This document shows positions 4,201 through 42,435 of a stretch of DNA of 50,759 bases, one piece after another. Within the stretch, counting starts at the first letter, position 1. The number at the start of each line of letters is the position of its first letter. The DNA is taken from IMG/VR virus record IMGVR_UViG_3300012201_000005, positions 1 through 50,759 of that record. One strand, written 5' to 3'. The translations under genes were made by a program, and so were the position numbers. Origin of the DNA: a virus. Taxonomy: Duplodnaviria > Caudoviricetes. The notes under the pieces are model-generated. The model saw only the letters and a program-made list of their open reading frames with translations. It was not told the origin of the DNA and searched no databases.

Positions 4201-4608
4201 ATTGGGGCTCAGATTGCGGCAGCGCTTCAAGATGGGTTTCAGGCTGGAGAAGTCGACACCCTCAAGACAACGATTTCTGACCTCTATTCTCAGGCCACTT
4301 CGGCAGTCACTCAGATCAATACGCTGTTCCCAGGATTCGCATCTGGTACCGATTGGGCTCCCGGTGGCATCGCCTTGGTAGGTGAACAGGGCCCTGAGCT
4401 GATGAACGTCCCTCGAGGCTCACAGATCGTTCCTGCGGCCCAAACCAGACGACTTTTACAATCGACTCAGAATAACCAAACCAACAATACCTCGACAAAG
4501 GGGGATACCGTGATCAGCATCCAATCAAATGCACCGCTTGACCCATTGCAGACGGCTAGAGCTGTGAGAGAGACTATGGAATCCTTGGCCTTTGCGGGAG
4601 TGGCATGA
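1261..4608 (+). CDS. Tape measure protein
   Basis: 1115 aa, Ala-rich helical; N-terminal LGELLVQINGD, tape-measure domain (TPLEFADVRDAGKQLLAYG...GIPIWEEL), C-terminal GFASGT...VGEQGPEL motif. Confidence 0.95.
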   Translation: MSVLGELLVQINGDNSGLNKSLNQSSKTAGEFANSIVQKLGGVALAYKALQVAIDGIQYNAMREQAEIAFGVFLGSADKAKAMIKSLQQVAIDTPLEFADVRDAGKQLLAYGVAAEDLVPTIKTLIDVSAGLNIPIKDLSYLYGTIKTQGRAMTVDINQFANRGIPIWEELAKVTGKNGQELRSFVEAGQVGFPIIEKAFQGMTSEGGKFFNMAVKQMDSFVGTQSNLSDATGIYLSNLTAGMMGPLKEGMISITKSMNDATVSSHEFGATLGKVFDIAVAVVGPVFDVLSKMPGEFTAIGIAAGIAFAVFGPWGALVAGIAVSIGAIGKYLDDLDKSKTEGLKSSFLSIAESSKMTADQTKTFLASADKVEQNLISWSGDSSNVATAFGNIAKASGMTAVQVANIAINSDKMSQGQKDVAQQFLKQNGLTAIGSLNTEQIAKNQAAIVARVKESSDLYAKQHPLEIAAAKLKAQADKDAAVAAKAQADALRGLLANQEALERGILATNAINKAGNKDVVDSLLDQNKLRSEYLAKLEKEGIEGKASLSFVESETARITGLNNDNLTIIKNLGIAQAGVTIKLQEQNDTSYEFLQGLVETGTTVAHINGLFSLTNLDLTNIGTKQKIVADTQEKVLTATEKTRKELEKIGMGKIFDEILTDSEDWNGRIKDVYNGVRAVWKDGFERMGESLVTGKGSWQGWAAAADKALASVLEGLGMQLAAMAIGKALMNDWTGAALATAGSIAAFVGAGVLNALSDQLSAVVEQEKKTGTTAHVVAKEVAATVTSVQLLAEAVKKAKEQIDKKSDTSSYATELIKQTDAVRLHYQKLEAEAANAARRTVSAMHDTTKAATSHTSTFAQDIAFYTEQGKHSTGALREYYFKLANEVIDARDKAAAKIAADGKVILDAQMQKEIDDLGYNMALFQQRADEAGSNLSSSFADALKKGTSETDFTKSIMDMLRGMAIDAAILAGGFADKFKAIGAQIAAALQDGFQAGEVDTLKTTISDLYSQATSAVTQINTLFPGFASGTDWAPGGIALVGEQGPELMNVPRGSQIVPAAQTRRLLQSTQNNQTNNTSTKGDTVISIQSNAPLDPLQTARAVRETMESLAFAGVA

Positions 4609-6443
4609 TGAGCAAAAGAGCTTTTATCTTTACACAAGCCAACTCTTCGCCATTTGCTGGACTTGATGGATCGGTGACATTCTCCAATGGCACTCAGACT
4701 GCGGATAAGATCCTGCTCATTTCTGCCGATGGACTAGGGGCTCCGGCACTCAGCACTCAGACTCAGAATGCCCCGTTCCAGCAAGGCGCTTCCTTGATTA
4801 GGACATTATTCCAGCCCAGGACTATTACCCTGGAATGTGCTATCTCGGTTCCTGCCGCGAGTTCAAGCGGTCGTGCCGAGGTGACCACGATCAAGCGTCG
4901 TTTATCAAAGTATCTTTCACCAGTTGGCATGGGGTTCCTTCCTGACACTTCCTTGACCTTGTCGAACTATTCCACTTGGATCGGAAAGCTTTCCTATGCC
5001 TCGAATGGGACGACCTTTGACCGGTTCATTGACTGTGTACCGATGACCGTTGAGTTCCCGAATGCCTTTTATCAGGATGGGTTCCAGAAGATGCGGGTCG
5101 TGTTCTTCTGTCCTGATCCATTTTGGTATGGCGCAGATCAGACCCAGACTATGGCTAATGTTTCCTTAGCCATTTCTGGAATTTGGGCTTCTATTGCATG
5201 GTCACCAACGTTAAGATTATTCTGTTCTCCAGAATATGGAACAACACGTATCCAGACATCCCCCGATGGAATTAACTGGACTCTCCATAATACAGCAGGG
5301 GCGGCAGGGGCCCAATGGTATGTCACGGTATGGAGTCCGGAATTAGCATTGTTTTGTAGTATAGCTACAACCAATACAGCCATCCAAACATCCCCAGATG
5401 GATTGGTATGGACATTGAGAACAGGAGTATCGGCTGTTGCATGGGTATCTCTTGCTTGGTCTTCTAAGCTGTCATTATTCTGTGCTGTAGCTGTTTCCAG
5501 CACAAATATTCAGACATCCCCCGATGGGATTAACTGGACATTAAGGACAGGGGTATCTTCTGTTTCCTGGTTTTCAGTATGCTGGTCAGAGGAACTAAAC
5601 ATTTTTTGTGCTATTGCTCAATCCAGCACAAATATTCAGACATCCCCCGATGGAATTAACTGGACATTAAGGACAGGGGCTTCTTCTGCTCAATGGTATT
5701 CCATGACATGGGCTGCTGGACTTGGACTGTTTTGTGTTTGTGGAACAAATGCTATTCAGACATCCCCCGATGGGATTAACTGGACATTAAGGACTAGTGC
5801 ATCCTCGGCTGAATATCGTCGGGTTAAGTGGGCTCCTGAGCTTGGGTTATTATGTTCATTTGCCGCAAATTCTAGCACAGCCATCCAAACATCCCCAGAC
5901 GGAATAACGTGGACATTAAGGGCTGGATCTGGCTCAATAAATAGATTTGACATGGTATGGGCCAATTCAATTGGCATGTTTTGCATTGTTGCCAATTCAG
6001 CAGGGCAATATCCTGAGATCAGCTATGATGGCATCAATTGGGTACAAAACTCAGCCACAACAGACTGGTATGCCACAATCAACAATCAAGGCGACATTTC
6101 AGCTACATTCGCCATTACTATTCCCATTGTCGGCGGAGAAACTGGAAAAGTTGTCGCCATAGGTGAAAACTTCCTTTGGGCAGGGTCGGGCGACCCTCCA
6201 TCCGACCACAACATAGTGTTTTCCACTCAGGGACTCAAGACTGGATCAGTGATTCTTAATACGAAGTTTGGATCGAAGACCATCACCCAGTTCGGAAACT
6301 CGGTCATGAACAACTTCGTAGGCGGCACATTCTTCGCGCTCTATGTTTCTGGGTCACAGTCGAACATCCTCTATCTCAGGAATACCGGTACACCAGCGGC
6401 AGCTCCATCCATAACTTATCGGAACAGGTATATTGACGTATGA
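4605..6443 (+). CDS. Distal tail protein (Dit) with inserted Asp-box/BNR repeat domain
   Basis: Follows TMP; Dit-like motifs PRTITL and FFCPDPFWYG, C-terminal YRNRY; six QTSPDGxxWT repeats plus one degenerate copy inserted. Confidence 0.8.
   Translation: MMSKRAFIFTQANSSPFAGLDGSVTFSNGTQTADKILLISADGLGAPALSTQTQNAPFQQGASLIRTLFQPRTITLECAISVPAASSSGRAEVTTIKRRLSKYLSPVGMGFLPDTSLTLSNYSTWIGKLSYASNGTTFDRFIDCVPMTVEFPNAFYQDGFQKMRVVFFCPDPFWYGADQTQTMANVSLAISGIWASIAWSPTLRLFCSPEYGTTRIQTSPDGINWTLHNTAGAAGAQWYVTVWSPELALFCSIATTNTAIQTSPDGLVWTLRTGVSAVAWVSLAWSSKLSLFCAVAVSSTNIQTSPDGINWTLRTGVSSVSWFSVCWSEELNIFCAIAQSSTNIQTSPDGINWTLRTGASSAQWYSMTWAAGLGLFCVCGTNAIQTSPDGINWTLRTSASSAEYRRVKWAPELGLLCSFAANSSTAIQTSPDGITWTLRAGSGSINRFDMVWANSIGMFCIVANSAGQYPEISYDGINWVQNSATTDWYATINNQGDISATFAITIPIVGGETGKVVAIGENFLWAGSGDPPSDHNIVFSTQGLKTGSVILNTKFGSKTITQFGNSVMNNFVGGTFFALYVSGSQSNILYLRNTGTPAAAPSITYRNRYIDV
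5250..6045 (+). repeat. Tandem ~126-bp coding repeats (IQTSPDGINWTLR)
   Basis: Near-identical DNA such as CAGACATCCCCCGATGG(A/G)ATTAACTGGAC recurs at ~5252, 5511, 5637 and 5757, with variants at ~5384 and 5885. Confidence 0.9.
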
Positions 6444-21310: not shown

Positions 21311-22053
21311 TGACGTTCACCATTGAAGGCTTTTCACAGGAAGAACTTGTGAGGCTCAAACTCGACAACACTGACGCCGTGATTCTTCGGTGGTTCATTA
21401 CGTTTCAACTCACTGGACGCATGGATGAAGAGAAAGGACCAGATGGAAAAACGTACTTTTGGGTTCGCTATCCGAAGGCGAGAGACGACCTGCCAATTCT
21501 TGGGTTGACTCCTGAAACCCTAGCCCGGAGATTCCGAAAGATGGCTGATTCTGGGGTATTGAAACACTACCACCACAAGGTGGGTGGGAGTTTTTCCATG
21601 TACCGTGTCGGGGATTGTTTCGAGGCTTTGGCCTTCACACCCCCTCTGCGTTCAAACGCAGACCCCTCTGCTTCTGAACGCACACCCCCTCTGCGTTCAA
21701 ACGCAGACCAAAATACTCTTCTCTTAAATAGTGATCAAAAAGAAAAGAGTCAGAAGAACACGAAACACAAACATGGGGAGTACAACCATGTTCTCCTTAC
21801 CTCTTCAGAACTCGAAAAACTCGAGAGAAACTTCCCTCTAGACTGGGAACACCGAATCAAGACCATGGACGAAGGAATCGAACTCAAGGGGTACAGGTAC
21901 AAGAGTCACTACCTAGCAATCTTGAAGTGGGCCGAGCGTGATCGAGCTACTTCAATACCCCTCTTCCCTGAGTCCAAGGAAGAACCCTACGTGGACAAGT
22001 TTGCGGAACGATGGTTCAAGAATCACCCTGAGGACCGGCCCCGTGCTCAGTAG
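21310..22053 (+). CDS. Replication initiator protein
   Basis: N-terminal wHTH-like region (YFWVRY...LPIL), internal iterons, C-terminal KHKHGEYNHVLLT...YKSHYLAILKW; precedes the helicase. Confidence 0.8.
   Translation: MTFTIEGFSQEELVRLKLDNTDAVILRWFITFQLTGRMDEEKGPDGKTYFWVRYPKARDDLPILGLTPETLARRFRKMADSGVLKHYHHKVGGSFSMYRVGDCFEALAFTPPLRSNADPSASERTPPLRSNADQNTLLLNSDQKEKSQKNTKHKHGEYNHVLLTSSELEKLERNFPLDWEHRIKTMDEGIELKGYRYKSHYLAILKWAERDRATSIPLFPESKEEPYVDKFAERWFKNHPEDRPRAQ
21636..21709. repeat. Replication origin iterons
   Basis: Three ~22-bp units CCCCTCTGC(G)TTC..AACGCA; two 29-bp exact copies at 21636 and 21681; AT-rich tract follows. Confidence 0.8.
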
Positions 22054-32648: not shown

Positions 32649-33274
32649 ACCCCTACGAACTGCTAGGAGTCCCCAAAGACGCCAACCTCGCCGAGATCAA
32701 GAAAGCCTACCGCAAGCTAGCCAAGGAGCGCCACCCAGACCAAGGTGGTTCAACTGAGGAAATGGCGAAGCTAGCCCGGGCATACTTGATACTTTCCGAC
32801 CCTGAGAAGCGCAAGCGATTCGACGAGACAGGGAGCGACAAGGAGCCTGATTTCTCAGGAGAAATGCACATGGCGTTCGCCACGATGTGCGAGAAGATAT
32901 TCTTTGCCGAGGAAGACCGAAACGCAAAAAACGCCCTTGAAGTCTTTTCCGCAACCCTGGAAAGGGAGTATAATGCAGGGAAGGAACGAATTGCAGCGCA
33001 GCGGAGGATTCTGGAACGGGCAAAGGGTCGCATCGTAAAGGCTCCGGAGTTCGACCTTTTGGGTGGCTTGATTGCTCAAAGGTTATTGGCAGTGAAAGGG
33101 CTTGAAGATCTAAACAACCGGGAGTACAAGACGCATAGCGAGGCTTTGAAGCTGTTGCAAGCGTATGTATTCAATGAACCGATGGAACGAAGCCAGTTCG
33201 TCAGAATGTTCGATGTCACGATCAATGGCATGAAAATGCCAGACATGCAAGGCTTTGTGGACCGAAAGAGTTAG
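32645..33274 (+). CDS. J-domain (DnaJ-like) protein
   Basis: NPYELLGV...EIKKAYRKLAKERHPDQGG...AYLILSDPEKRKRFD. Confidence 0.92.
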   Translation: MNPYELLGVPKDANLAEIKKAYRKLAKERHPDQGGSTEEMAKLARAYLILSDPEKRKRFDETGSDKEPDFSGEMHMAFATMCEKIFFAEEDRNAKNALEVFSATLEREYNAGKERIAAQRRILERAKGRIVKAPEFDLLGGLIAQRLLAVKGLEDLNNREYKTHSEALKLLQAYVFNEPMERSQFVRMFDVTINGMKMPDMQGFVDRKS

Positions 33275-33312
33275 AATGGCCACTTGAGAAAATCAGGGGC
33301 AAGGAGAAAGAG

Positions 33313-33915
33313 ATGATCGAATTGGGATTGACCGTGAAAGACAAGATTACCGGGCTAACAGGCGTTGCCGTTGCCAGGACCGAATATCTGACCGGGTGCG
33401 CTCGGATCAGTGTTCAGCCCACCGAGGTTAAGGACGGGAAAACGGCCGACTGGGTAACTCTAGACGAGGGCCAAGTCGACATTATCAATGCCAAGAAAAA
33501 GATCGTCCTGAACGAGATCAAGGCCGCAACTCCGAGGCAAGAACGCGGTGGTCCGCAACCTGCCGTGGGAAAATGGTAGGTGAGTATCATGGAAATCGGA
33601 ACAACGGTCATCAGCACCGAGGAATACATGGAACTGCGGGCCATGAGGGACAACCTTGAGGCCAGGAAAGCGGAGATCGAGGCGAATGCCGATAAGGTTT
33701 TCGTGAATGAGTTTGGGACATATTTCGCTTCTTCTCGATATATCCTAAAAGATGAGGCATTGAAGAAACTGACAGACGAAGCAACCAGAAGGGATGCACT
33801 GATCGATAACCAGAAGGAGAAAATATCAGAGCTGAACAGAATAGCCAATTCACACCCCAAAACCACCATTTCTAACCGTCTCCGTTTCCTCTTCACCGGA
33901 AACCTCGAATACTAA
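33313..33915 (+). CDS. Two hypothetical phage proteins (33313-33579, 33580-33915)
   Basis: First has the widespread LG..VKDKITG.TG...R.EYLTGC motif. Confidence 0.65.
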
Positions 33916-34076
33916 GCCACCGAGTAGACAATGTGCCACTCTTATCAAAAACATTTCATTCCTGATTGCTGGCCATCCGTTATCTACGGAGAATGGGCTT
34001 GTACTTGTCTCCGATTACAGAAATATATGGTCAAGCCAATGTCTGGCCTTATTATCGAAAAGGACAGGGATTAGCA

Positions 34077-34571
34077 ATGGCAGGCGGTAGACCAACATCC
34101 TTCGACGCCGAAAAGGCAAAAATCATCATAGATACTGTCAAGGCAGGTAATTACGTTGAGACAGCCGCCGCTTATGCCGGTGTGAACAAATCAACCGTCT
34201 ACGATTGGATCAAGCGCGGTGCCCGAAACGAGAGCAAAGAACTACACGAGTTTTCCAACGCATTGTATTCTGCAGACGCCGAAGCTGAGATTCGAGACAT
34301 CCAAACTATCGAAAATGCATCAAAAACCCAGTGGCAAGCGGCAGCATGGCGAAGGGAAAGAAGAGCGCCTCAACGGTGGGGAAGAAAGGACCATGTCGAG
34401 ATGAACGGCACGATGGACCTGAACCATGTGGCCCTGACAAAGCTTTCCCCACAAGAGTTCCAACAGGCCCAGGATGCTTTCATCATCAGGAACGCCGAAC
34501 GGATCGAAAGACTAAAGAAAGAGGCCGAAGAGCGGTTATTGCTTGAAGGGCCTGAAGAGGAATCTAAATGA
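34077..34571 (+). CDS. Terminase small subunit
   Basis: MAGGRPTSF, HTH (AAAYAGVNKSTVYDW), WQAAAW..ERR.P..WGRKD. Confidence 0.75.
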   Translation: MAGGRPTSFDAEKAKIIIDTVKAGNYVETAAAYAGVNKSTVYDWIKRGARNESKELHEFSNALYSADAEAEIRDIQTIENASKTQWQAAAWRRERRAPQRWGRKDHVEMNGTMDLNHVALTKLSPQEFQQAQDAFIIRNAERIERLKKEAEERLLLEGPEEESK

Positions 34572-35100
34572 TAATCGAGAGAGCCCCTGTCCATGTCACG
34601 CATGAGAAGGCGCAAGAGCAATACAGGCGATACTGCACCCTCACTGCGCCATTGGAGAAACTCTGGCACACCAAGGAGATGCGATACATATACGACAAGC
34701 CGATGACGTTCAAAAACTTCATGGATTGCAGCCAAATGGTGATTACAGAGGCCTCTCTTTGATTCCACTGTACGACCTCCACGACCTCACCACCTACTCA
34801 ACCGAACGCCTTGAAGGCGAACGGGACGAGGCAATCCTTGGCATTGGCGCGATTAAACAGAAGCTTTTGCGGCTCCCCAATGGCCTCAAGGATGCTCAAC
34901 TGTCGCTCCTCTCGGCAAAGCTCAACTATGGAGCAGTCCATCAACTCACGTCCTCAGAGCTAGGCAGGCGACGCCGTGCGGCCCGTTTGGAGCGTATTAA
35001 GGTGGTGGAGTCGGCTTTTGTTACCTTGGCGAAGGAACGGCTACCAGCTGATGTGTTTCAGGACTTGCTTGACGAGGCTGTCGAGAAAACGAGGGGGTAA
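34568..35100 (+). CDS. Two small hypothetical genes (34568-34762, ~34759-35100)
   Basis: Coupled ORFs after terS. Confidence 0.5.
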
Positions 35101-35147
35101 TAGGTATTTGTTTGACGAAATAGGTATTTACCGTTAAACTCGTATTT
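35099..35147 (+). promoter_or_regulatory. Promoter with direct-repeat operator
   Basis: TTGACG(35112)-17-TAAACT; AATAGGTATTT at 35099 and 35119. Confidence 0.65.
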
Positions 35148-35181
35148 ATGAAACGAAAGGACCTTGAAAAGGAGGCCAAAA

Positions 35182-35535
35182 ATGGCTGAAAAGTTTTATC
35201 CTGAGACGATCAATCACGATGACAAAAAGTACATCCGTGAAGACCTTGTCTCGAAGCAAATCGCCCGCGAGATCAAAGGAGCATGGACGGTTGGCGAAAA
35301 GTACATCATCCGAACGGTGACCATGATCCAGACCGGGCGACTGATCTTTGTGGACGACCATGAGCTTGTCCTTGAAGATGCCGCATGGATCGCTGATACG
35401 GGCCGATGGGCTGACGCGATTTCCACGGGAGTGCTCAACGAAATTGAACCTTTCGAGGATGACGTCATTGTGGGCCGTTCTGCCGTGATCGACGCTACCC
35501 TATGGAAACATGCGCTTCCCAGGACGAAGAAATGA
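35182..35535 (+). CDS. Sm/Lsm-like fold protein
   Basis: AGGAGG SD; VGEKYIIRT..IQTGRLIFVDDHELVLEDA (Sm1-like) and DVIVGRSAVID (Sm2-like). Confidence 0.65.
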   Translation: MAEKFYPETINHDDKKYIREDLVSKQIAREIKGAWTVGEKYIIRTVTMIQTGRLIFVDDHELVLEDAAWIADTGRWADAISTGVLNEIEPFEDDVIVGRSAVIDATLWKHALPRTKK

Positions 35536-35660
35536 TCCAGGCCATTTCTAGAACGGGCTTAGATATCGCGCGGTCGCGGTCGGGGTCGGGGTCGTGGTCG
35601 CGGTCGGGGTCGGGGTCGCGGTCGGGGTCGCGGTCGCGGTCGCGGTCGTGGTCAAAATGA
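35532..35660 (+). CDS. 42-aa (R/G/W-Ser)14 repeat peptide (not in ORF track)
   Basis: ATGA overlaps with both neighbours; MIQAISRTGLDIARSRSGSGSWSRSGSGSRSGSRSRSRSWSK. Confidence 0.75.
   Translation: MIQAISRTGLDIARSRSGSGSWSRSGSGSRSGSRSRSRSWSK
35571..35654 (+). repeat. 14 x 6-bp tandem repeat (C/G/T)GGTCG
   Basis: Directly visible; only the first base of each unit varies (last unit ends TCA). Confidence 0.97.
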
Positions 35661-35968
35661 CTAGGGCTCAGGTTGTTGCCACCATTGAACAGGCACGGAT
35701 AGATTGCCTTGAAGCTGGCCTAGTTGGAACGGCAAACGCCTTGAAACAAGTTCTAGACGAGTTTGATTCCATGCCATCCAAGGCCGCTTCGATCATGGGT
35801 TCCAAAGGAGGCACCCCTCCCCCGAAACCAGGATCAAGGCCGCGTGGACGACCGAGAAAGATTGTTGACGCCATGGCGGGAATGGAAGCGGTAATGTCGC
35901 CCGAGTCTATCAAGGCTTCGGACAGAATCTTCGAGCAACTGAAAGCGGACGACCGAGAAAGGAAGTGA
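35657..35968 (+). CDS. AT-hook-containing protein
   Basis: AASIMGSKGG...RPRGRPRK; true start ATG 35657. Confidence 0.65.
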   Translation: MTRAQVVATIEQARIDCLEAGLVGTANALKQVLDEFDSMPSKAASIMGSKGGTPPPKPGSRPRGRPRKIVDAMAGMEAVMSPESIKASDRIFEQLKADDRERK

Positions 35969-35972
35969 GAGA

Positions 35973-36191
35973 ATGAATAGTGATGTAGTTTTATTGAACG
36001 GAAAATGCTTCAAGAAGTATGATCCAAGATTGCATAGACGAAGTCCACTCAGAAAAGATCGGCGACGTCTAGAAATAGAGGAAAGATATAAAAATGGCAA
36101 TACTCAGGCAGAAATAGCCAGGGAATACGGTGTCACAAGACAAAGGGTTCACGCATTGCTAAAAGATCTGATTGTGAAGGAAGGTGAATGA
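35973..36191 (+). CDS. Small HTH DNA-binding protein
   Basis: GNTQAEIAREYGVTRQRVHALL. Confidence 0.8.
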   Translation: MNSDVVLLNGKCFKKYDPRLHRRSPLRKDRRRLEIEERYKNGNTQAEIAREYGVTRQRVHALLKDLIVKEGE

Positions 36192-36952
36192 TGAAAGGAC
36201 TGAACGAAGCTGAGAAGAAGGAGCTGCTTCCTTCTGACCTGATTTTCCTGGGATACCGGGGAAGCATTGCACATGGGATATATGTCCCAAACATCGACCC
36301 CAATAGCATCGACGACAAAGACGTAATGGGCGTTTACGTTGGCCCACCCTCTCACTACATCGGAACCAGGAAGGTCAAAGATGTCCGGGAAAGATGGTAC
36401 AACGAATGGGACTGCGTTTACTACGAGGTCTTGAAACTCGCGGGATTGCTTGAGAAAGGGAACCCCAATGTGCTTTCGTTGCTTTGGCTTGATGATCGCT
36501 ACATCATTCACAAGTCGCCCGAGTGGGACCTATTCAAGGAGAATAGGGACGCCTTTTCGAGCAAGGCTGTCTATCATTCCTTTTCCGGGTACGCTCATGG
36601 ACAGCTTCACCGCATGACCCGCATGGCCTTCGATGGGTATATGGGAGAGAAGCGAAAGGGGCTTGTTGAAAAGTATGGCTACGACTGCAAGAACGCCGCG
36701 CACTTGATTCGGTTGCTCAGGATGGGAATCGAGTTCCTGACTGAGGGGGTCCTCTACGTCGAACGAAAGAATGACGCAACCCAGCTACTCGAAATCAAGC
36801 GCGGGGAATGGACCCTTGAAAGCGTGAAGACCGAAGCTGCGAGACTGTTTGCTCTTTGCGAACAGGCGTACATCCATAGCCCACTCCCTGCCAAGCCTGA
36901 CAGCGAACGAATTAACGCCATATGCATGAACGTTCTCAGGAATAGGATCTAA
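36188..36952 (+). CDS. Pol-beta superfamily nucleotidyltransferase (YcgL/RlaP-like, Nuc-transf)
   Basis: RGSIAHG...SIDDKDVMGVY, KGNPNVLSLLW, GYDCKNAAHLIRLLRMGIEFL...LLEIKRGE. Confidence 0.85.
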   Translation: MMKGLNEAEKKELLPSDLIFLGYRGSIAHGIYVPNIDPNSIDDKDVMGVYVGPPSHYIGTRKVKDVRERWYNEWDCVYYEVLKLAGLLEKGNPNVLSLLWLDDRYIIHKSPEWDLFKENRDAFSSKAVYHSFSGYAHGQLHRMTRMAFDGYMGEKRKGLVEKYGYDCKNAAHLIRLLRMGIEFLTEGVLYVERKNDATQLLEIKRGEWTLESVKTEAARLFALCEQAYIHSPLPAKPDSERINAICMNVLRNRI

Positions 36953-36987
36953 AACCAGCCCGGCGTCATCCGGGAAAAGGAATAAAA

Positions 36988-37404
36988 ATGAATGCGATTT
37001 TTCAAGTCTTAACGCTGGCATGGTCATTTCAAGGCGGGGTTCTTCCTGAGTTGGATATGGGCAGTATCTTGCAACCTGTCTATTTGAACCATGGGCTTGA
37101 GTTCGTGGCCTACTCATTCGAGGCTACCTACCCAGTTTTTAGCGGTCGCAAGGATGACGTGGACGGGATGTACGTCGGATCATCACTCGAGAACGTATTT
37201 ACGAACGGCGTCCAGTTGCTTCGATTCTCACCCATCCAGGATACCTACAAGTTTTCAGCCGGTGTTCGATGGGGCGGTTTGACGCTTGGATGGGATCAGA
37301 TTTGCACCCACTCAATCGAGACTGTGAGGGATAACAAGGTTGCTAGTCAGTATCTTTTCGGGGACATGACTAGGGTCTTTTTGAAAGTCGAAGGAAAGAT
37401 GTAA
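36988..37404 (+). CDS. Putative exported / outer-membrane beta protein
   Basis: Alternating amphipathic strands (YKFSAGVRWGGLTLGW, RVFLKVEG). Confidence 0.45.
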   Translation: MNAIFQVLTLAWSFQGGVLPELDMGSILQPVYLNHGLEFVAYSFEATYPVFSGRKDDVDGMYVGSSLENVFTNGVQLLRFSPIQDTYKFSAGVRWGGLTLGWDQICTHSIETVRDNKVASQYLFGDMTRVFLKVEGKM

Positions 37405-37471
37405 ACTAAGGTCGCTCCGCGCTGGGAGAGTCCAGCGAGTGGCGTCTAGCCCTAGACTATTAGGGCACCAC

Positions 37472-37540
37472 GGGGCTTGCTGAAGGTAAGCACGATCTTT
37501 TGCGCGGATCGGTGAATGGGTTCAATCCCCATAGGGTCCA
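37472..37540 (+). tRNA. Degenerate tRNA-Ala(TGC)-like element
   Basis: 5' GGGGCTT, D arm GCT..AGC, CGATCT-TTTGCGC-GGATCG arm, perfect T arm ATGGG-TTCAATC-CCCAT, G3-U70; weak acceptor and missing positions 8-9. Confidence 0.5.
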
Positions 37541-37739
37541 AGTGTTTCATGGAAAGCCAACGAGGAAACCAAGATCGGCGACGACCTGATTACGGCTATC
37601 GAAGTCAACGACAAGAAAGGCGTCATATCCGACCAGGTGGCCAGGATCTTCTACAATACCAGTCAGCGATACGCCGAGATGCTGAGGAAACCTGAAAAAG
37701 TAAAACCGATCTGAGCGGTATCTCAGAAAAGGAAACGCA

Positions 37740-38624
37740 ATGTCAGTATTGGTAATCAACCCCAACGGGGAAATTATCGGCCACGGTATCAGCGCGGTAC
37801 GTGGAGACTTTCAAGGCGAGAAGGGCCTCATTAAGGTCACTGTGGGATCTGGAGAGTTTGACTTCCACTATATCGGCACGAACGACCGGGACAACTACAC
37901 CTTCGTTACCATGGACTTGCCCGGGGGATTCAATCCGGACAACTTCAAGGTGGTGAACGGAAAACTGAAGGCGAAGAGCTGACCATGGGTGTCAAGGTTG
38001 TAATCGTTCAATTTCCCATCCGAGAATGGAATGTTGCCGATGTCTGGGAAATCTCCCGAGACCATGGGTGTTCAAGAAAGTTAGTTCATACCATCAGTAG
38101 ATTCTTTCGGGTCACTGATGACGCCATTATCGAGGAGAAGGCCATCCTTGAATCTGGCGTCGGATACAAGCCGGGCGAGATTGTTTGGATACACTCGTTG
38201 ATCGGTAAGGACTTTGAACTCCAGACAGCCAAGACAGAGCGAGACGGCCCGTCGGAGGATAGCTGACCATGGAAATCACAGAGGACGTTGCCCTAGCACG
38301 GTTAGAAGCTTGCAATGAGTATGTGTCTCGAATCATGAACTATGAGGGAACAAAAGCCATGGTCTGCCTTGACGGAAACTTTGAGGTAGAAGAAATTGAA
38401 GCTATCTTGTGGTGTCTCAAGAATGACAAATGGACTAAGGACTGACCATGGCAAGAAAAAAGCAATTCAAGGAAGTCACAGTCTATCAGGAGTTCACCTT
38501 CTACATGGGCTCTTGTGGATTTCCTAAGGCCCCCATCCTGACTAACAAACCTCTTTCAAGGCCTGTTCATATCTGCTGGATTGAGAGGCTCATGCAAGAA
38601 TCCATGATGTACGGCGCGGTCTGA
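37740..38624 (+). CDS. Four small genes (37740-37982, 37985-38266, 38269-38445, 38448-38624)
   Basis: Each ends in the same CTGACCATGG stop-start junction; the last two (58 aa each) are below the ORF track cut-off. Confidence 0.7.
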
Positions 38625-38626
38625 CC

Positions 38627-40249
38627 ATGGAACTGGGCGTGGGCGATGACGAACTAACAGACGAAGAGTTCCACGCCCAGCTTGAAGAGTTCCGTATCGC
38701 GGAAGAGTGGCATGCTCACCAGGAGTCCCTGAAGCCATTCCGCGAGTCTCACTTGAAGTTCATGCAAAGTACCTGGATGACCGGGAACGATGGGCCTTTT
38801 GTCGTAGGATTCCATACCATGGAAATCTGCAAAGCGATTGATGAAGCCATGGTCAGGTTTCGACGGGGTGAATCAACATTCCTTCAAATCAAATGCCCGC
38901 CGCGCCACGGGAAATCCGACCTAGTTTCCAGGTATCTTGCTGCCCATTTCCTTGGTGAGTTCCCAGAGAAGAAGGTGATGCAAGTTGCCTTCCGTCAGGG
39001 GTTGGCTTCCCTGTTCTCGGGTTTTGGCCGGAACCTCATCCAGACGGAACCATACCAAGAGCTTTACCCAGGGGTTAGGCTTTCGAACGAATCAGCGGCC
39101 AAGGATCTTTGGACCATCATGACTCCCGAAGGTGTTCATACCGGGGGCGCTCTCATGGCCTCTGGCTTGACCTCTGGGCTCACTGGATCCGGGTTCTCAT
39201 TAGGTATCCTTGACGACTTCTGTGGCAGCCGTGCCGATGCTGAGAGTCGAACCATCCGAGACAACACTTGGAACGCATTCAAGGACGACTTTCTGACCCG
39301 TCGGGCCAAGGTGTCCATCGTGATCGTGTTGGCGACTCAGTGGCATTATGATGATGTACATGGTCGAATCCAAAGCATGATGAAGTCCGAGCCGAACTTC
39401 CCCAGGTTCGAAGACCTGACCTTTCCCGCTAAGGCTGAGAAGTTCAAGATACCAGGCGCATATGGGCAGGAGTATCTCTTTGAAGAGTTCTTCGGGAAGA
39501 AATACTACCAAGAGCAATATGCAATCCTGGGGCCATATTCGTCTGCCTCACTTCTGGACTGTTCGGCCTATCTTCGATCAGGTGGGCGATTCTCTGAGGT
39601 CGGTATAGTTTGGGAAGATAACATCGTGGTGGATACCTCGAAACGATGGGTTAGAGTTTGGGACCTTGCACACTCGGCGAAGCAGCGGGGCGGTGATGAC
39701 CCTGACTGGACCTCTGGTACCCTTCTAGCCTTTGAGGAACGCCCTGGTGACCCGGTTCGCCATCTTTACATCAAAAGCGTAAGAAGGACCCGGGCGGGGG
39801 CATTGGAGCGGGATGCTATGATTAAGGCGACCGCTGATAAAGATGGGCCATATGTTACCCAGGGGCTTGAAATCTCCCTAGATACCAAGGACGCCGCTGA
39901 ATATTTGGCCAACGCATTGAAAGACTATACCTTCACCCCGATTTCTGTGACTGGCGATAAGGGAGCCAGGGCAACCCCGCTAGAAGTGATGTTTGCTACA
40001 GATGGAAACAATCATGATAACCCTCACGTCCATGTTCAACGGGCCGAATGGAACGACGCCTGGCTTGATGAGGTTCTTCGATTCGATGGCATGGGTAAGG
40101 AACATGACGATCAGGTGGACAATATTTCAGCGGGATATATTCTACTTATTGGAGCGAAGGCCCCAGAATATGCATTCGCCTTCGGAGGTGCATCCATAGT
40201 CAAGTCAGCCGATGGGGATACCGTCGAACTCGACCCTAGTATCTGGTGA
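38627..40249 (+). CDS. terL: Terminase large subunit
   Basis: CPPRHGKS Walker A, GILDD Walker B, TQWHYDD, RVWDLA, HDDQVD nuclease motifs. Confidence 0.95.
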   Translation: MELGVGDDELTDEEFHAQLEEFRIAEEWHAHQESLKPFRESHLKFMQSTWMTGNDGPFVVGFHTMEICKAIDEAMVRFRRGESTFLQIKCPPRHGKSDLVSRYLAAHFLGEFPEKKVMQVAFRQGLASLFSGFGRNLIQTEPYQELYPGVRLSNESAAKDLWTIMTPEGVHTGGALMASGLTSGLTGSGFSLGILDDFCGSRADAESRTIRDNTWNAFKDDFLTRRAKVSIVIVLATQWHYDDVHGRIQSMMKSEPNFPRFEDLTFPAKAEKFKIPGAYGQEYLFEEFFGKKYYQEQYAILGPYSSASLLDCSAYLRSGGRFSEVGIVWEDNIVVDTSKRWVRVWDLAHSAKQRGGDDPDWTSGTLLAFEERPGDPVRHLYIKSVRRTRAGALERDAMIKATADKDGPYVTQGLEISLDTKDAAEYLANALKDYTFTPISVTGDKGARATPLEVMFATDGNNHDNPHVHVQRAEWNDAWLDEVLRFDGMGKEHDDQVDNISAGYILLIGAKAPEYAFAFGGASIVKSADGDTVELDPSIW

Positions 40250-40305: not shown

Positions 40306-42435
40306 ATGGGATGGTTTACGAACATAGTTTCAAAGGCTTTGCCAGCAATCCAGACCAAGCTGCGAAATACGTTTATGCCAAAATGGGTAACCGTAAGTCG
40401 TAGGGCATCTACTGCCTATTCCGACCTTTTCCATACTTCCCCGCAACTAGACGCCGTTGACATCATCTCCACCGACTATGCAAATGCTGGATTCAAGATC
40501 TTCAACAAACATCATCTACGCACCGATGAAAAGAACGCTGAGGCCCTTGGAGATCATCCGGCCTATGATGTTCTGGAAAATCCCATACCAGACAATCCCA
40601 GTTTTGACGGGTTCTCGCTTCGATACCTGACAAACGTCTATCTTGAGATCCATGGGGAATGCTTTTGGTTTGTCCTTCGCGATATTCATGGTATCCCGCG
40701 AGAAATCTATCTGGCCCCGACCACGTGGGTCATTCAAACGCCGTTCGTAAACCATCCCGTCTTTTTGCTCATGCCTTTGGGGAACAATTCTTCGATGACA
40801 ATGGAAGTTCCGAAAGAAGATGTGGTTTACTTTAAGATGCCCAACGCCGTCCAACCTTATGACCGAGGCAGAGGGCGAACAGAGACTATAGGTACCGAGA
40901 TTGAGGCCTATGAATATGCCATGAACTACGCCAGGAACTTCTTTTTCAACGATGCCACCCCCAGGACAATCGTTACGGCACCCGGAGCTTCGGAAGACCA
41001 GGTCAAGGCTTTCAAGGCCGCTTGGGACTTGAACTTCCGAGGGGTATCGAACGGGAATAAAACTGGATTTGTTGGATGGGATTCGAAGGTCCTCAAGCTC
41101 TCGGATAATCCTCATGAGATGGACTTTATCGAATCCATGAAAGCCCTTGCCGAAAAAGCCCGGTCCCATTATCAGATTCCTCCGGAAATCTTCGGTATCA
41201 TGAACGACGCCAAACGGGCGACGGTTGATGCTGCACAATACCTCTATGCCAAGAATGTCCTGGTGAAGCGATTCGCTCGACATGAGGCTGTCCTGAATCG
41301 TCAGTTCATGCCGATGTTCGGGAATAAGGACGAGGTCATCAAGTTTGATAACCCTGTTCAGGAAGACCTTGAGTTCAAGCTCAAGGTTGCCAATGACGGA
41401 TGGGAAAATGGGGCTTTGATCAGGGATGAATGGAGAACTGCCAATGGGTACAAGGCTCTTGGCGGAGAGACTGGAAATGAGTTGAAGATTTCCATGGGTG
41501 AGACCGCCCTCTTGGCCACCGGAGCCATCCCCAAGCGCCTAGCAGTTATAGAGCCTGTCGCCGAACCTTTGGCGATTGTCCCCGGGGAGGTCGGCAATGT
41601 ACCATCTTCCAAATCCATGCGTCAAATTGTTGATGATATTTCGACCAAGGCGCTTTCCGATTCCGAGAAGGAAGCCGCATGGCAAGAGTTCTACAAGATC
41701 GAGCAAGCCAATTGGCCCGGATTCATCCAAGGAGCCAAAGCTATCGCGGTCGCTCAAAAGAAACAATTCAGGAACCTGTTTGACGCCTACATTGGGGATG
41801 AGGAAGATCCTGTTAACGCCCTGAACAAAGCTACGGCGGAAATCTATGGTTCAGCGGTGACCAATGGTCAGACCTTTGCCAAACTCGCTCCGGCATGGGC
41901 TAAAGCACTTCGGGACGGGTTCGACATTGCCGACAAGATGCTAGGCGGTGGGATTGACTGGAAACTATACAATCCGAAGCTGACAGAATGGCTAAAAACA
42001 CATGGACTTGAGGCTGCCAAGGAAATCAACGGTACGACGAAGAAAGAACTCTTGGCACTGGCTCCAAAAATCGAAGAAGCCTTGGCGAATGGCAAGAGCA
42101 TCGCGGATATCGGGCGAATGTTGGACAAAGTTTACACGAAGCTGGGAACGACTCGAGCAAACCTGATCGCCGAGACGGAAAGCATGACTTCGATCAACAA
42201 TGGGCAGTTCCTGGTTTACAGGGGCGAAGGCGTGATCAAGAAGACATGGCTCCATTCCATGCTTCCAAACGGTCGAGACAATCACAAGGCTCTGAATGGG
42301 GTAACCATCGGGATTGACGAGAAGTTCAATATGGGCGGAAATGTTCACATGCTCCATCCCGGAGACCAGGAAGGTGGGGCTAGTAACATAATTTCGTGCC
42401 ATTGTACGATTGTTCCAGGCGATCAAGAGGAATAA
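40306..42435 (+). CDS. HK97-type portal protein fused to MuF (gp7-like) domain
   Basis: Portal motifs (GECFW, FFFNDATP, EMDFIES, YQIPP) then RANLIAETE...KKTW...RDNH...HPGD...ISCHC. Confidence 0.9.
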   Translation: MGWFTNIVSKALPAIQTKLRNTFMPKWVTVSRRASTAYSDLFHTSPQLDAVDIISTDYANAGFKIFNKHHLRTDEKNAEALGDHPAYDVLENPIPDNPSFDGFSLRYLTNVYLEIHGECFWFVLRDIHGIPREIYLAPTTWVIQTPFVNHPVFLLMPLGNNSSMTMEVPKEDVVYFKMPNAVQPYDRGRGRTETIGTEIEAYEYAMNYARNFFFNDATPRTIVTAPGASEDQVKAFKAAWDLNFRGVSNGNKTGFVGWDSKVLKLSDNPHEMDFIESMKALAEKARSHYQIPPEIFGIMNDAKRATVDAAQYLYAKNVLVKRFARHEAVLNRQFMPMFGNKDEVIKFDNPVQEDLEFKLKVANDGWENGALIRDEWRTANGYKALGGETGNELKISMGETALLATGAIPKRLAVIEPVAEPLAIVPGEVGNVPSSKSMRQIVDDISTKALSDSEKEAAWQEFYKIEQANWPGFIQGAKAIAVAQKKQFRNLFDAYIGDEEDPVNALNKATAEIYGSAVTNGQTFAKLAPAWAKALRDGFDIADKMLGGGIDWKLYNPKLTEWLKTHGLEAAKEINGTTKKELLALAPKIEEALANGKSIADIGRMLDKVYTKLGTTRANLIAETESMTSINNGQFLVYRGEGVIKKTWLHSMLPNGRDNHKALNGVTIGIDEKFNMGGNVHMLHPGDQEGGASNIISCHCTIVPGDQEE

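Follow-up and report, generated by a model that had tools for sequence, protein, structure and literature searches.

A phage cassette that pairs a predicted Sm-like small β-barrel protein with a dedicated X-Ser repeat peptide

The IMG/VR virus record IMGVR_UViG_3300012201_000005 (Duplodnaviria; Caudoviricetes) was analysed as a whole, and this stretch of 50,759 bp, for which CheckV gives a completeness of 99%, is referred to below as the window. It carries a gene for a protein of 117 amino acids (aa) with a predicted Sm-like small β-barrel core, called here the partner or barrel protein, followed by a short gene for a 42-aa peptide, in which a leader precedes a repeat of Arg, Gly or Trp (X) strictly alternating with Ser. 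Comparison among related loci has shown, at the level of sequence, that both genes are real and co-inherited and that the pair is the unit. The core of the initial annotation, which had read the locus as a protein of Sm fold tied to an X-Ser repeat peptide of its own and as a candidate undescribed two-component system, is borne out. No description of a pair of barrel protein and X-Ser peptide was found in the literature (main texts, supplementary files aside). The cassette appears to be new as a system, though a toxin-chaperone pair of an unusual kind could lie behind it.

The partner gene (35182-35535; all features of the cassette lie on the + strand) encodes an N-terminal β-hairpin and a linker, and then the conserved Sm-like small β-barrel core at about residues 34-117. 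Its stop codon, TGA at 35533-35535, shares an ATGA overlap (35532-35535) with the start of the peptide gene (35532-35660), the TGA of which (35658-35660) in turn overlaps the ATG at 35657 of the next gene in a second ATGA (35657-35660). The 117-aa gene, the 42-aa open reading frame (ORF) and the overlaps at both of its ends were all found exactly where the initial annotation had placed them. The peptide begins with a 13-aa leader (35532-35570; family consensus MNAAxLRxGFDxS), continues with a 14-unit hexamer array (35571-35654) encoding (R/G/W-S)14, and is closed after the array by a single Lys. The first bases of the units run C,C,G,G,T,C,G,G,C,G,C,C,C,T, so that Arg occurs 7 times, Gly 5 times and Trp 2 times, in each case with Ser next. 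Leader length, number of units and composition are therefore as first described, whereas the array is not uniformly NGG-TCG as had been claimed: it consists of 13 NGG-TCG units and 1 NGG-TCA, the last Ser codon being TCA. The claim that the first base is never A is true of the window array, but other loci write Arg as AGG instead of CGG. Tandem Repeats Finder reports the array at 35569-35653 with period 6, 14.2 copies and a score of 121; the remaining period-6 rows among its 19 rows for the window have ≤3.2 copies.

For comparison, 80 viral, 30 genome-contig and 80 metagenome loci were used together with the GenBank phage MW202573.1. The locus sets (viral, metagenome and pattern-derived) overlap in source contigs, as with the contig of L026, which recurs as L184, and some loci are duplicates (L005/L006, L011/L015, L031/L033/L034, L039/L050, L053/L055 and L058/L060). 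ORFs were called naively from the first ATG, GTG or TTG after a stop, and some of the peptide starts, with an offset that differs from -4, were probably placed too far upstream. An ORF with leader and X-Ser repeat follows the partner homolog at 74/80 viral loci. The initial annotation had named beforehand, as what would speak against the pairing, homologs with no repeat ORF downstream; where the full 700-nt flank was available at a viral locus, the partner is followed by an X-Ser run in 62/67 cases, against 2/63 for control windows of the same size taken 1.5 kb further downstream. The peptide is likewise present at 29/31 genome and GenBank loci, where partner identity goes down to 32%, and at 46 of the 53 metagenome loci having ≥150 nt downstream. 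In 51 of the 75 viral loci for which a peptide ORF was reported, its start overlaps the partner stop by 4 nt, just as in the window. The full-flank exceptions comprise L049, L056 and L068, in which the peptide gene or genes lie upstream of the barrel gene (four in tandem in L068), and two remnants, L028, which retains the leader and three units, and L026, which is degenerate. Some phages have two to four back-to-back peptide genes (L068:2007-2840, L031, L030 and L012), and L011 holds two whole partner-plus-peptide modules. When the forward-strand ORFs of 81 loci were compared all against all, the barrel gene was recovered in 81/81, and any other cluster in ≤6/81.

The pairing also holds in the opposite direction. 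IMG/VR was scanned for a DNA pattern of seven TCG-type units, and 80 listed loci were analysed, 17 of which were untestable because of <600 nt on the 5' side. Among the loci listed, 55/63 testable arrays lie beside a barrel gene, 45 of them beside a window-type barrel within 1.2 kb on the same strand and 10 beside a barrel of the type designated A4; the remaining 8 loci, with neither partner type, are 3 other repeat kinds and 5 X-Ser peptides. The notion of a dedicated pair has thus held up, with the peptide beside the barrel in both search directions and no other conserved neighbour. The A4 subfamily (~88 aa) is a distant homolog of the window protein (hhalign probability 92%, E 6.5e-7, 44 columns), and at L198, L205, L213, L234, L235, L238, L250, L266 and L270 its members are each followed by X-Ser peptides with different leaders. 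As judged from this homology, the module is broader than the family of the window's partner protein.

The partner family is widespread among uncultured phages and occurs in phage and prophage DNA binned with many bacterial phyla, yet it is nearly absent from GenBank phages, with 1 of 50,697 records (MW202573.1), in which both genes are annotated as hypothetical protein. The genome-contig matches come from metagenome-assembled genomes labelled with many phyla, including large contigs of Chlorobiota, Acidimicrobiia and Isosphaeraceae. The exact window peptide is absent from a collection of 15 billion proteins, in which 0/5 such peptides were found. In Logan short-read contigs from two soil metagenome runs, which are probably not independent, the flanks of the array match the window without differences, and the contigs break at 35563 and resume at 35661. 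Two RNA runs gave no contigs on the window, a result that carries no weight as to expression. X-Ser arrays are probably often absent or truncated in metagenome assemblies.

The three forward frames of the window array read (R/G/W-S)14, (RG)14 and a Val-rich (A/G/V-V)14. The (RG) frame is that of the 117-aa gene, and the variable base is there the wobble base of CGN. At related loci the other frames read RG, AG/EL, GH/GQ or GL, with stops in some (L007 and L010), while the X-Ser frame is constant even though the Ser codon differs; the expectation that relatives would preserve the repeat frame was thereby confirmed. Over 68 distinct arrays, Ser is written TCG 894 times, AGC 301, TCA 235, TCT 47 and AGT 31. 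In the leader, the mean entropy at codon positions 1, 2 and 3 is 1.0, 0.69 and 1.62, so that the variation falls mainly on the third position; leader Arg7 occurs as CGN as well as AGR, and leader Gly9 uses all four GGN codons, although the invariance of these two residues in the canonical leader set (alignment A2) reflects a set selected on both. Between the end of the array and the stop codon of the peptide ORF lie a median of 1 aa and, in 80/95 peptides, ≤3 aa. The use of TCN or AGY for Ser according to the locus, together with the third-position variation in the leader, indicates that selection acts on the peptide. No slippery site at which a -1 frameshift would fuse the partner to the peptide frame was obvious by eye near the end of the partner gene.

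The codon statistics refer to the same 68 arrays (1516 X codons), and those of composition to 95 distinct peptides (2669 units). X codons are NGG in 89% of cases (TGG 29.5%, GGG 27.4%, CGG 18.2% and AGG 14.1%), and Gly in the arrays is GGG 415 times as against 20 for all other codons. At the residue level, X is R in 31.8%, W in 29.9% and G in 29.9% of units, and the order of units is near random, with observed/expected ratios of neighbour pairs between 0.84 and 1.11. The peptide has a median length of 74 aa and 28 units (range 7-51 units), a median net charge of +10, almost no acidic residues and a median Trp content of 12%. In the closest relative found, the partner is 77% identical and the peptide is 83 aa long compared with 42 aa in the window, which points to a rapid turnover of length and unit order under a constant composition. 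Comparison of the arrays shows that selection bears on the composition of the encoded tail but not on how many units there are or in which order. A variant array at L030:2244-3740 also has Ala, Cys and Val as X (GCG, TGC, GTG, CGC and GGC), and its third base is not fixed as G. Longer or fused forms of the peptide were not found by a word search, the low complexity of the sequence making this a weak result.

The Ser codon is near-uniform within a locus and between the peptide genes of one genome, and differs between loci. Arg is likewise CGG or AGG according to the locus, rarely both, and genomes with several copies share Ser and Arg codons. As far as codon usage can tell, the arrays evolve by concerted evolution, synonymous sites being homogeneous within a genome and different between genomes. 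Slippage or conversion would homogenise the units and neutral sites would drift to uniformity, with the W, R and G unit types kept by selection. The GG of the unit is presumably frozen because Trp has only TGG, and a spreading third-base change would give TGA or Cys. Hypermutation of the first base of the unit was considered and rejected, since the use of CGG or AGG per locus, rarely both, points to three maintained unit types.

A word-indexed search returned 1401 relatives of the partner, none of which has a Pfam domain; in a full profile search, with clustering at 50% identity, the family has at least 1953 representatives. An AlphaFold2 model built from a 75-sequence alignment has a mean predicted local distance difference test score (pLDDT) of 92.4 and consists of the N-terminal hairpin, a linker and a barrel (residues 38-107) with one short helix, placed between strands 3 and 4. 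The top Foldseek matches in PDB are all LSm/Sm domains (best E 1.9e-3). In an exhaustive VIA-align search, the top 13 rows are all Sm, LSm or Hfq, the best being yeast SmF (Z 9.1, root mean square deviation 1.9 Å, 65 residues), with Hfq chains at Z 7.3-8.5. The Sm fold that had been claimed for the upstream protein is therefore supported by these structural matches, but no Sm sequence signature accompanies it in Pfam or PDB, and the partner is best called an Sm-like small β-barrel, by its predicted structure, of a new sequence family. In a protein atlas the matches were viral clusters without a name and, weakly, DUF6948 (score 0.86), and a BFVD search listed some DUF6948 proteins, with no match in Pfam. 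The partner is almost never fused to other domains: a search for longer forms gave a single protein of 207 aa, apparently extended at its N-terminus. Natural tandem proteins with two barrel domains exist in the family, and the model of one of them (P0123) has a predicted template modelling score of 0.79 even though its linker is poorly predicted, which hints weakly that barrels may pack side by side.

Upstream of the partner gene, two exact copies of the 11-bp direct repeat AATAGGTATTT (35099-35109 and 35119-35129) flank the -35 hexamer of a sigma-70-like promoter match, TTGACG-17-TAAACT (35112-35140), and may serve as an operator. At ≤1 mismatch, AATAGGTATTT has 3 matches in the window against 0.35 expected, namely the 2 exact copies and 1 one-mismatch copy elsewhere. 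The promoter match agrees with the consensus at 9/12 positions, and a consensus scan finds 4 sites of such quality in the region where 1.4 are expected. The promoter and operator of its own that had been attributed to the cassette are thus present as a promoter-like match with flanking repeats, at the level of consensus. A Shine-Dalgarno sequence, AGGAGG (35170-35175), can be read 6 nt 5' of the ATG at 35182.

The cassette belongs here to a small accessory gene block between terS (33966-34571) and terL (38627-40249), the portal gene being at 40306-42435. The next gene downstream (35657-35968, +) encodes 103 aa including a basic Pro/Gly/Arg segment that, read from the translation, resembles an AT-hook; it has no Pfam, NCBIfam or PADLOC family and is not kept beside the cassette at other loci. 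Further accessory genes of the block (35973-36952, +) encode a 72-aa sigma-70 region-4-like helix-turn-helix protein (E 8.2e-7) and a 254-aa RlaP-type nucleotidyltransferase (Pfam E 2.8e-21; phrog_388 E 2e-44). Elsewhere in the window, tandem repeats of 126 and 120 nt (5388-5874, +; 2.0-2.4 copies, 73-77% matches) inside a 612-aa ORF (4605-6443) look like a repeated protein domain, possibly of a tail or fibre gene, and Tandem Repeats Finder also lists a 22-23 nt repeat of ~3.2 copies at 21636-21709. The window has no tRNA genes, and blastn found nothing in GenBank phages that matches 33000-38000.

We tentatively favour, with a confidence that falls somewhat short of probable, a self-contained two-gene phage accessory cassette in which a barrel hub docks polycationic, Trp-rich, disordered peptides and binds or condenses nucleic acid. 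Transcription would start from the cassette's own promoter-like site, and translation of the peptide gene would be coupled to that of the barrel gene via the stop/start overlap. The leader would then dock the peptide, the tail of which looks disordered, onto the cognate barrel protein. The leader type tracks the partner subfamily, which fits such docking, and shared ancestry alone could give the same. The barrel probably oligomerises in the manner of Sm-like proteins, and the resulting hub with several cationic and aromatic arms might bind and compact RNA or single-stranded DNA in the early or replicative phase of infection. Cationic peptides are reported to condense the nucleic acids of bacteria and thereby to inhibit transcription and translation (PMC10630377). 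The occurrence of the module in many host phyla fits a universal target such as nucleic acid. Among 129 neighbouring ORFs (the nearest on each side), the described families within the top 25 PHROGs are helicase, polymerase, primase, clamp loader, methyltransferase, ParB and integrase, and no structural or lysis family is among the 25 most frequent of the 114 neighbour families; the replication-type neighbours were counted in favour of a nucleic-acid hub. A more specific and rather unlikely form of this proposal is a "hub-and-arms" particle, in which an oligomeric barrel and several peptides would be multivalent enough to drive nucleic-acid condensates (replication or RNA-sequestering compartments), Arg and Trp acting as stickers and Ser and Gly as spacers, with length and mixture tuned by the rapid turnover of the repeat.

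Several observations weigh against a nucleic-acid-binding hub or against the pairing and fold on which it builds. The cassette of the window sits between terS and terL rather than among replication genes, and the tally of neighbours covers the top 25 of the 114 PHROG families only. Five loci (L202, L222, L241, L248 and L271) have X-Ser peptides with no recognised barrel within 1.2 kb despite room upstream. At L202 the leader is of the canonical type; at L248 there are two copies, separated by 2 kb, close to an ORF that resembles a DNA polymerase. Their partner may sit elsewhere in the genome or be too divergent for detection. The best Z of 9.1 is modestly over the background of 7-8 stated for VIA-align; the partner has no Pfam match at E ≤ 1, LSM and Hfq included, and its profile (alignment A1) gave 0 matches at E ≤ 10 against all PDB sequences, the Sm assignment being one of predicted fold alone. 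Finally, the core of the barrel is slightly acidic, its net charge being -2 in the family (median) and -5 in the window; this would suit a protein that neutralises a cationic peptide no less than one with an RNA-binding face.

This last point leads to the main alternative, in which the Arg/Trp peptide is a toxin that would harm the membrane or nucleic acid, for host shut-off, exclusion or addiction, and the barrel a chaperone or antitoxin that would neutralise it via the leader. We consider this reading rather unlikely as well. Two small genes with a 4-nt overlap, a promoter-like site with direct repeats, the variable contexts of a mobile cassette, and a mildly acidic upstream protein before a strongly cationic downstream peptide are all as expected of such a pair. 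Arg/Trp richness is typical of antimicrobial peptides. The inhibition of transcription and translation upon nucleic-acid condensation by cationic peptides (PMC10630377) would provide a mode of action. On the other hand, none of the toxin, antitoxin and defence models of Pfam, NCBIfam and PADLOC is matched, up to 4 tandem peptide genes per locus with 7-51 units per peptide would be unusual for a toxin, and the peptides, as read from their sequences, have no signal or transmembrane segment; occurrence in phages of very different cell envelopes also argues against an envelope-specific target. A counter-defence decoy or sponge, the Trp/Arg-centred repeats of which would occupy or mis-assemble a host immune protein with the barrel as scaffold, appears improbable. 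Multivalent Trp motifs flanked by small residues do serve some eukaryotic viral silencing suppressors, and an accessory cassette with a promoter-like site in variable genomic contexts, the array of which changes quickly in length and order (42 versus 83 aa with a 77% identical partner), would suit such a decoy. However, no defence or anti-defence model is matched (a PADLOC scan of 6 proteins at E ≤ 0.1 gave 0 families), no host target is identifiable, and a composition constant over many host phyla would need a universal target.

It is very unlikely that the peptide is a precursor resembling those of ribosomally synthesized and post-translationally modified peptides (RiPPs), with the barrel as leader recognition element and a Ser/Trp core modified by an enzyme encoded elsewhere. 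A leader before a hypervariable core, several tandem precursor genes at some loci and a leader type co-varying with the partner subfamily are reminiscent of such systems, but there is no conserved modifying enzyme or other neighbour (≤6/81 loci per cluster) and no match to a precursor or recognition-element family; besides, the leader is short (~11 aa) and the cores have the character of compositional copolymers, with no defined sequence. Periodic RNA motifs are bound by proteins of the Hfq type, and the barrel might likewise bind the periodic GG or an mRNA hairpin for autoregulation, the peptide being incidental. The array has GG at period 6, with 89% of X codons NGG, and arrays of the TCN type form long hairpins (-38.9 kcal/mol and z -2.35 in the window; z -5.4 in L010). 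Nevertheless, a nucleic-acid element of this kind is scarcely credible: AGY-type arrays do not fold (z +0.85 in L004; minimum free energy 0 in L062), so that RNA structure is not conserved, whereas Ser is kept via two unrelated codon families, a conserved in-frame leader with a coding signature begins at the partner stop, and the frame closes directly after the array. The NGG bias is in turn accounted for, in all likelihood, by the sole Trp codon TGG in homogenised arrays. Almost certainly mistaken, finally, is a reading of the array in another frame. The variable base being the wobble position of CGN, the array translates in the frame of the 117-aa gene as a perfect (RG)14, which might form a tail of that protein by read-through, and a GTG at 35594 opens a 124-aa ORF continuous with the downstream gene, which could thereby gain a Val/Ala/Gly N-terminus. 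The tail was rejected because its frame is blocked by TGA and TAG, has no start codon in the window, and at other loci reads AG, GL or GH/GQ or has stops (L007 and L010). The N-terminal extension was rejected because neither the Val-rich frame nor the downstream gene is conserved among loci, and translation in the Val-Ala/Gly frame only, raised in the initial annotation, is not borne out.

The peptide is an extreme natural sequence, with strict X-Ser alternation, ~12% Trp and equal thirds of Arg, Trp and Gly, and the DNA of its arrays provides a clear case of concerted evolution constrained by a single Trp codon. If the nucleic-acid hub proves true, the cassette would offer a minimal, genetically separable system for nucleic-acid-binding assemblies in bacteria, and the peptides would represent a new class of small proteins in phages, one that is easily overlooked by gene callers.

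Among known systems, strict X-Ser periodicity is also found in the Ser-Asp repeats of the staphylococcal MSCRAMM adhesins (SdrC/D and ClfA/B) and in the Ser-Gly region of serglycin, and these repeat regions gave the only database-model signal for the peptide, sub-threshold by far (E 0.0026-0.34). Those proteins are long, secreted or anchored, and have acidic or Gly repeats, whereas the phage peptide is 33-122 aa, of cytoplasmic type and composed of Trp, Arg and Gly. From SR proteins with RS domains it differs in that it stands alone, with Arg as one third of X and no RRM match. RiPP precursors have a similar leader/core layout, and the tandem genes at some loci and a leader co-varying with an adjacent small protein recall them, with no match to a known precursor family; unlike RiPP clusters, the loci have no conserved modifying enzyme nearby, and the core is a compositional dipeptide copolymer. 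Two small overlapping genes, a promoter-like site with repeats, and mobility recall type II toxin-antitoxin systems, although no known family is matched and the second gene is a repeat of variable length, sometimes in several copies. Arg/Trp-rich antimicrobial peptides are similarly cationic and aromatic, and nucleic-acid compaction has been demonstrated for such peptides (PMC10630377). The phage peptide is, in contrast, made inside the host, paired with a dedicated partner, much longer and periodic. Bacterial Hfq, which has a disordered C-terminal region, resembles the partner in predicted fold and in core size, while the partner has no Hfq sequence signature, has its helix between strands 3 and 4 and an added N-terminal hairpin, and is acidic in its core. 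Several eukaryotic Sm and LSm proteins (SmB, SmD1, SmD3, LSm4 and Scd6/LSm14) have Arg/Gly-rich low-complexity tails. They appear to be the nearest functional analogy, since they likewise combine an Sm-type small β-barrel with an Arg/Gly-rich disordered segment. The phage-borne pair, known here from genes and a fold model, has no sequence homology to them, and its tail is a separate, coupled gene with its own leader, alternating with Ser and one third Trp.

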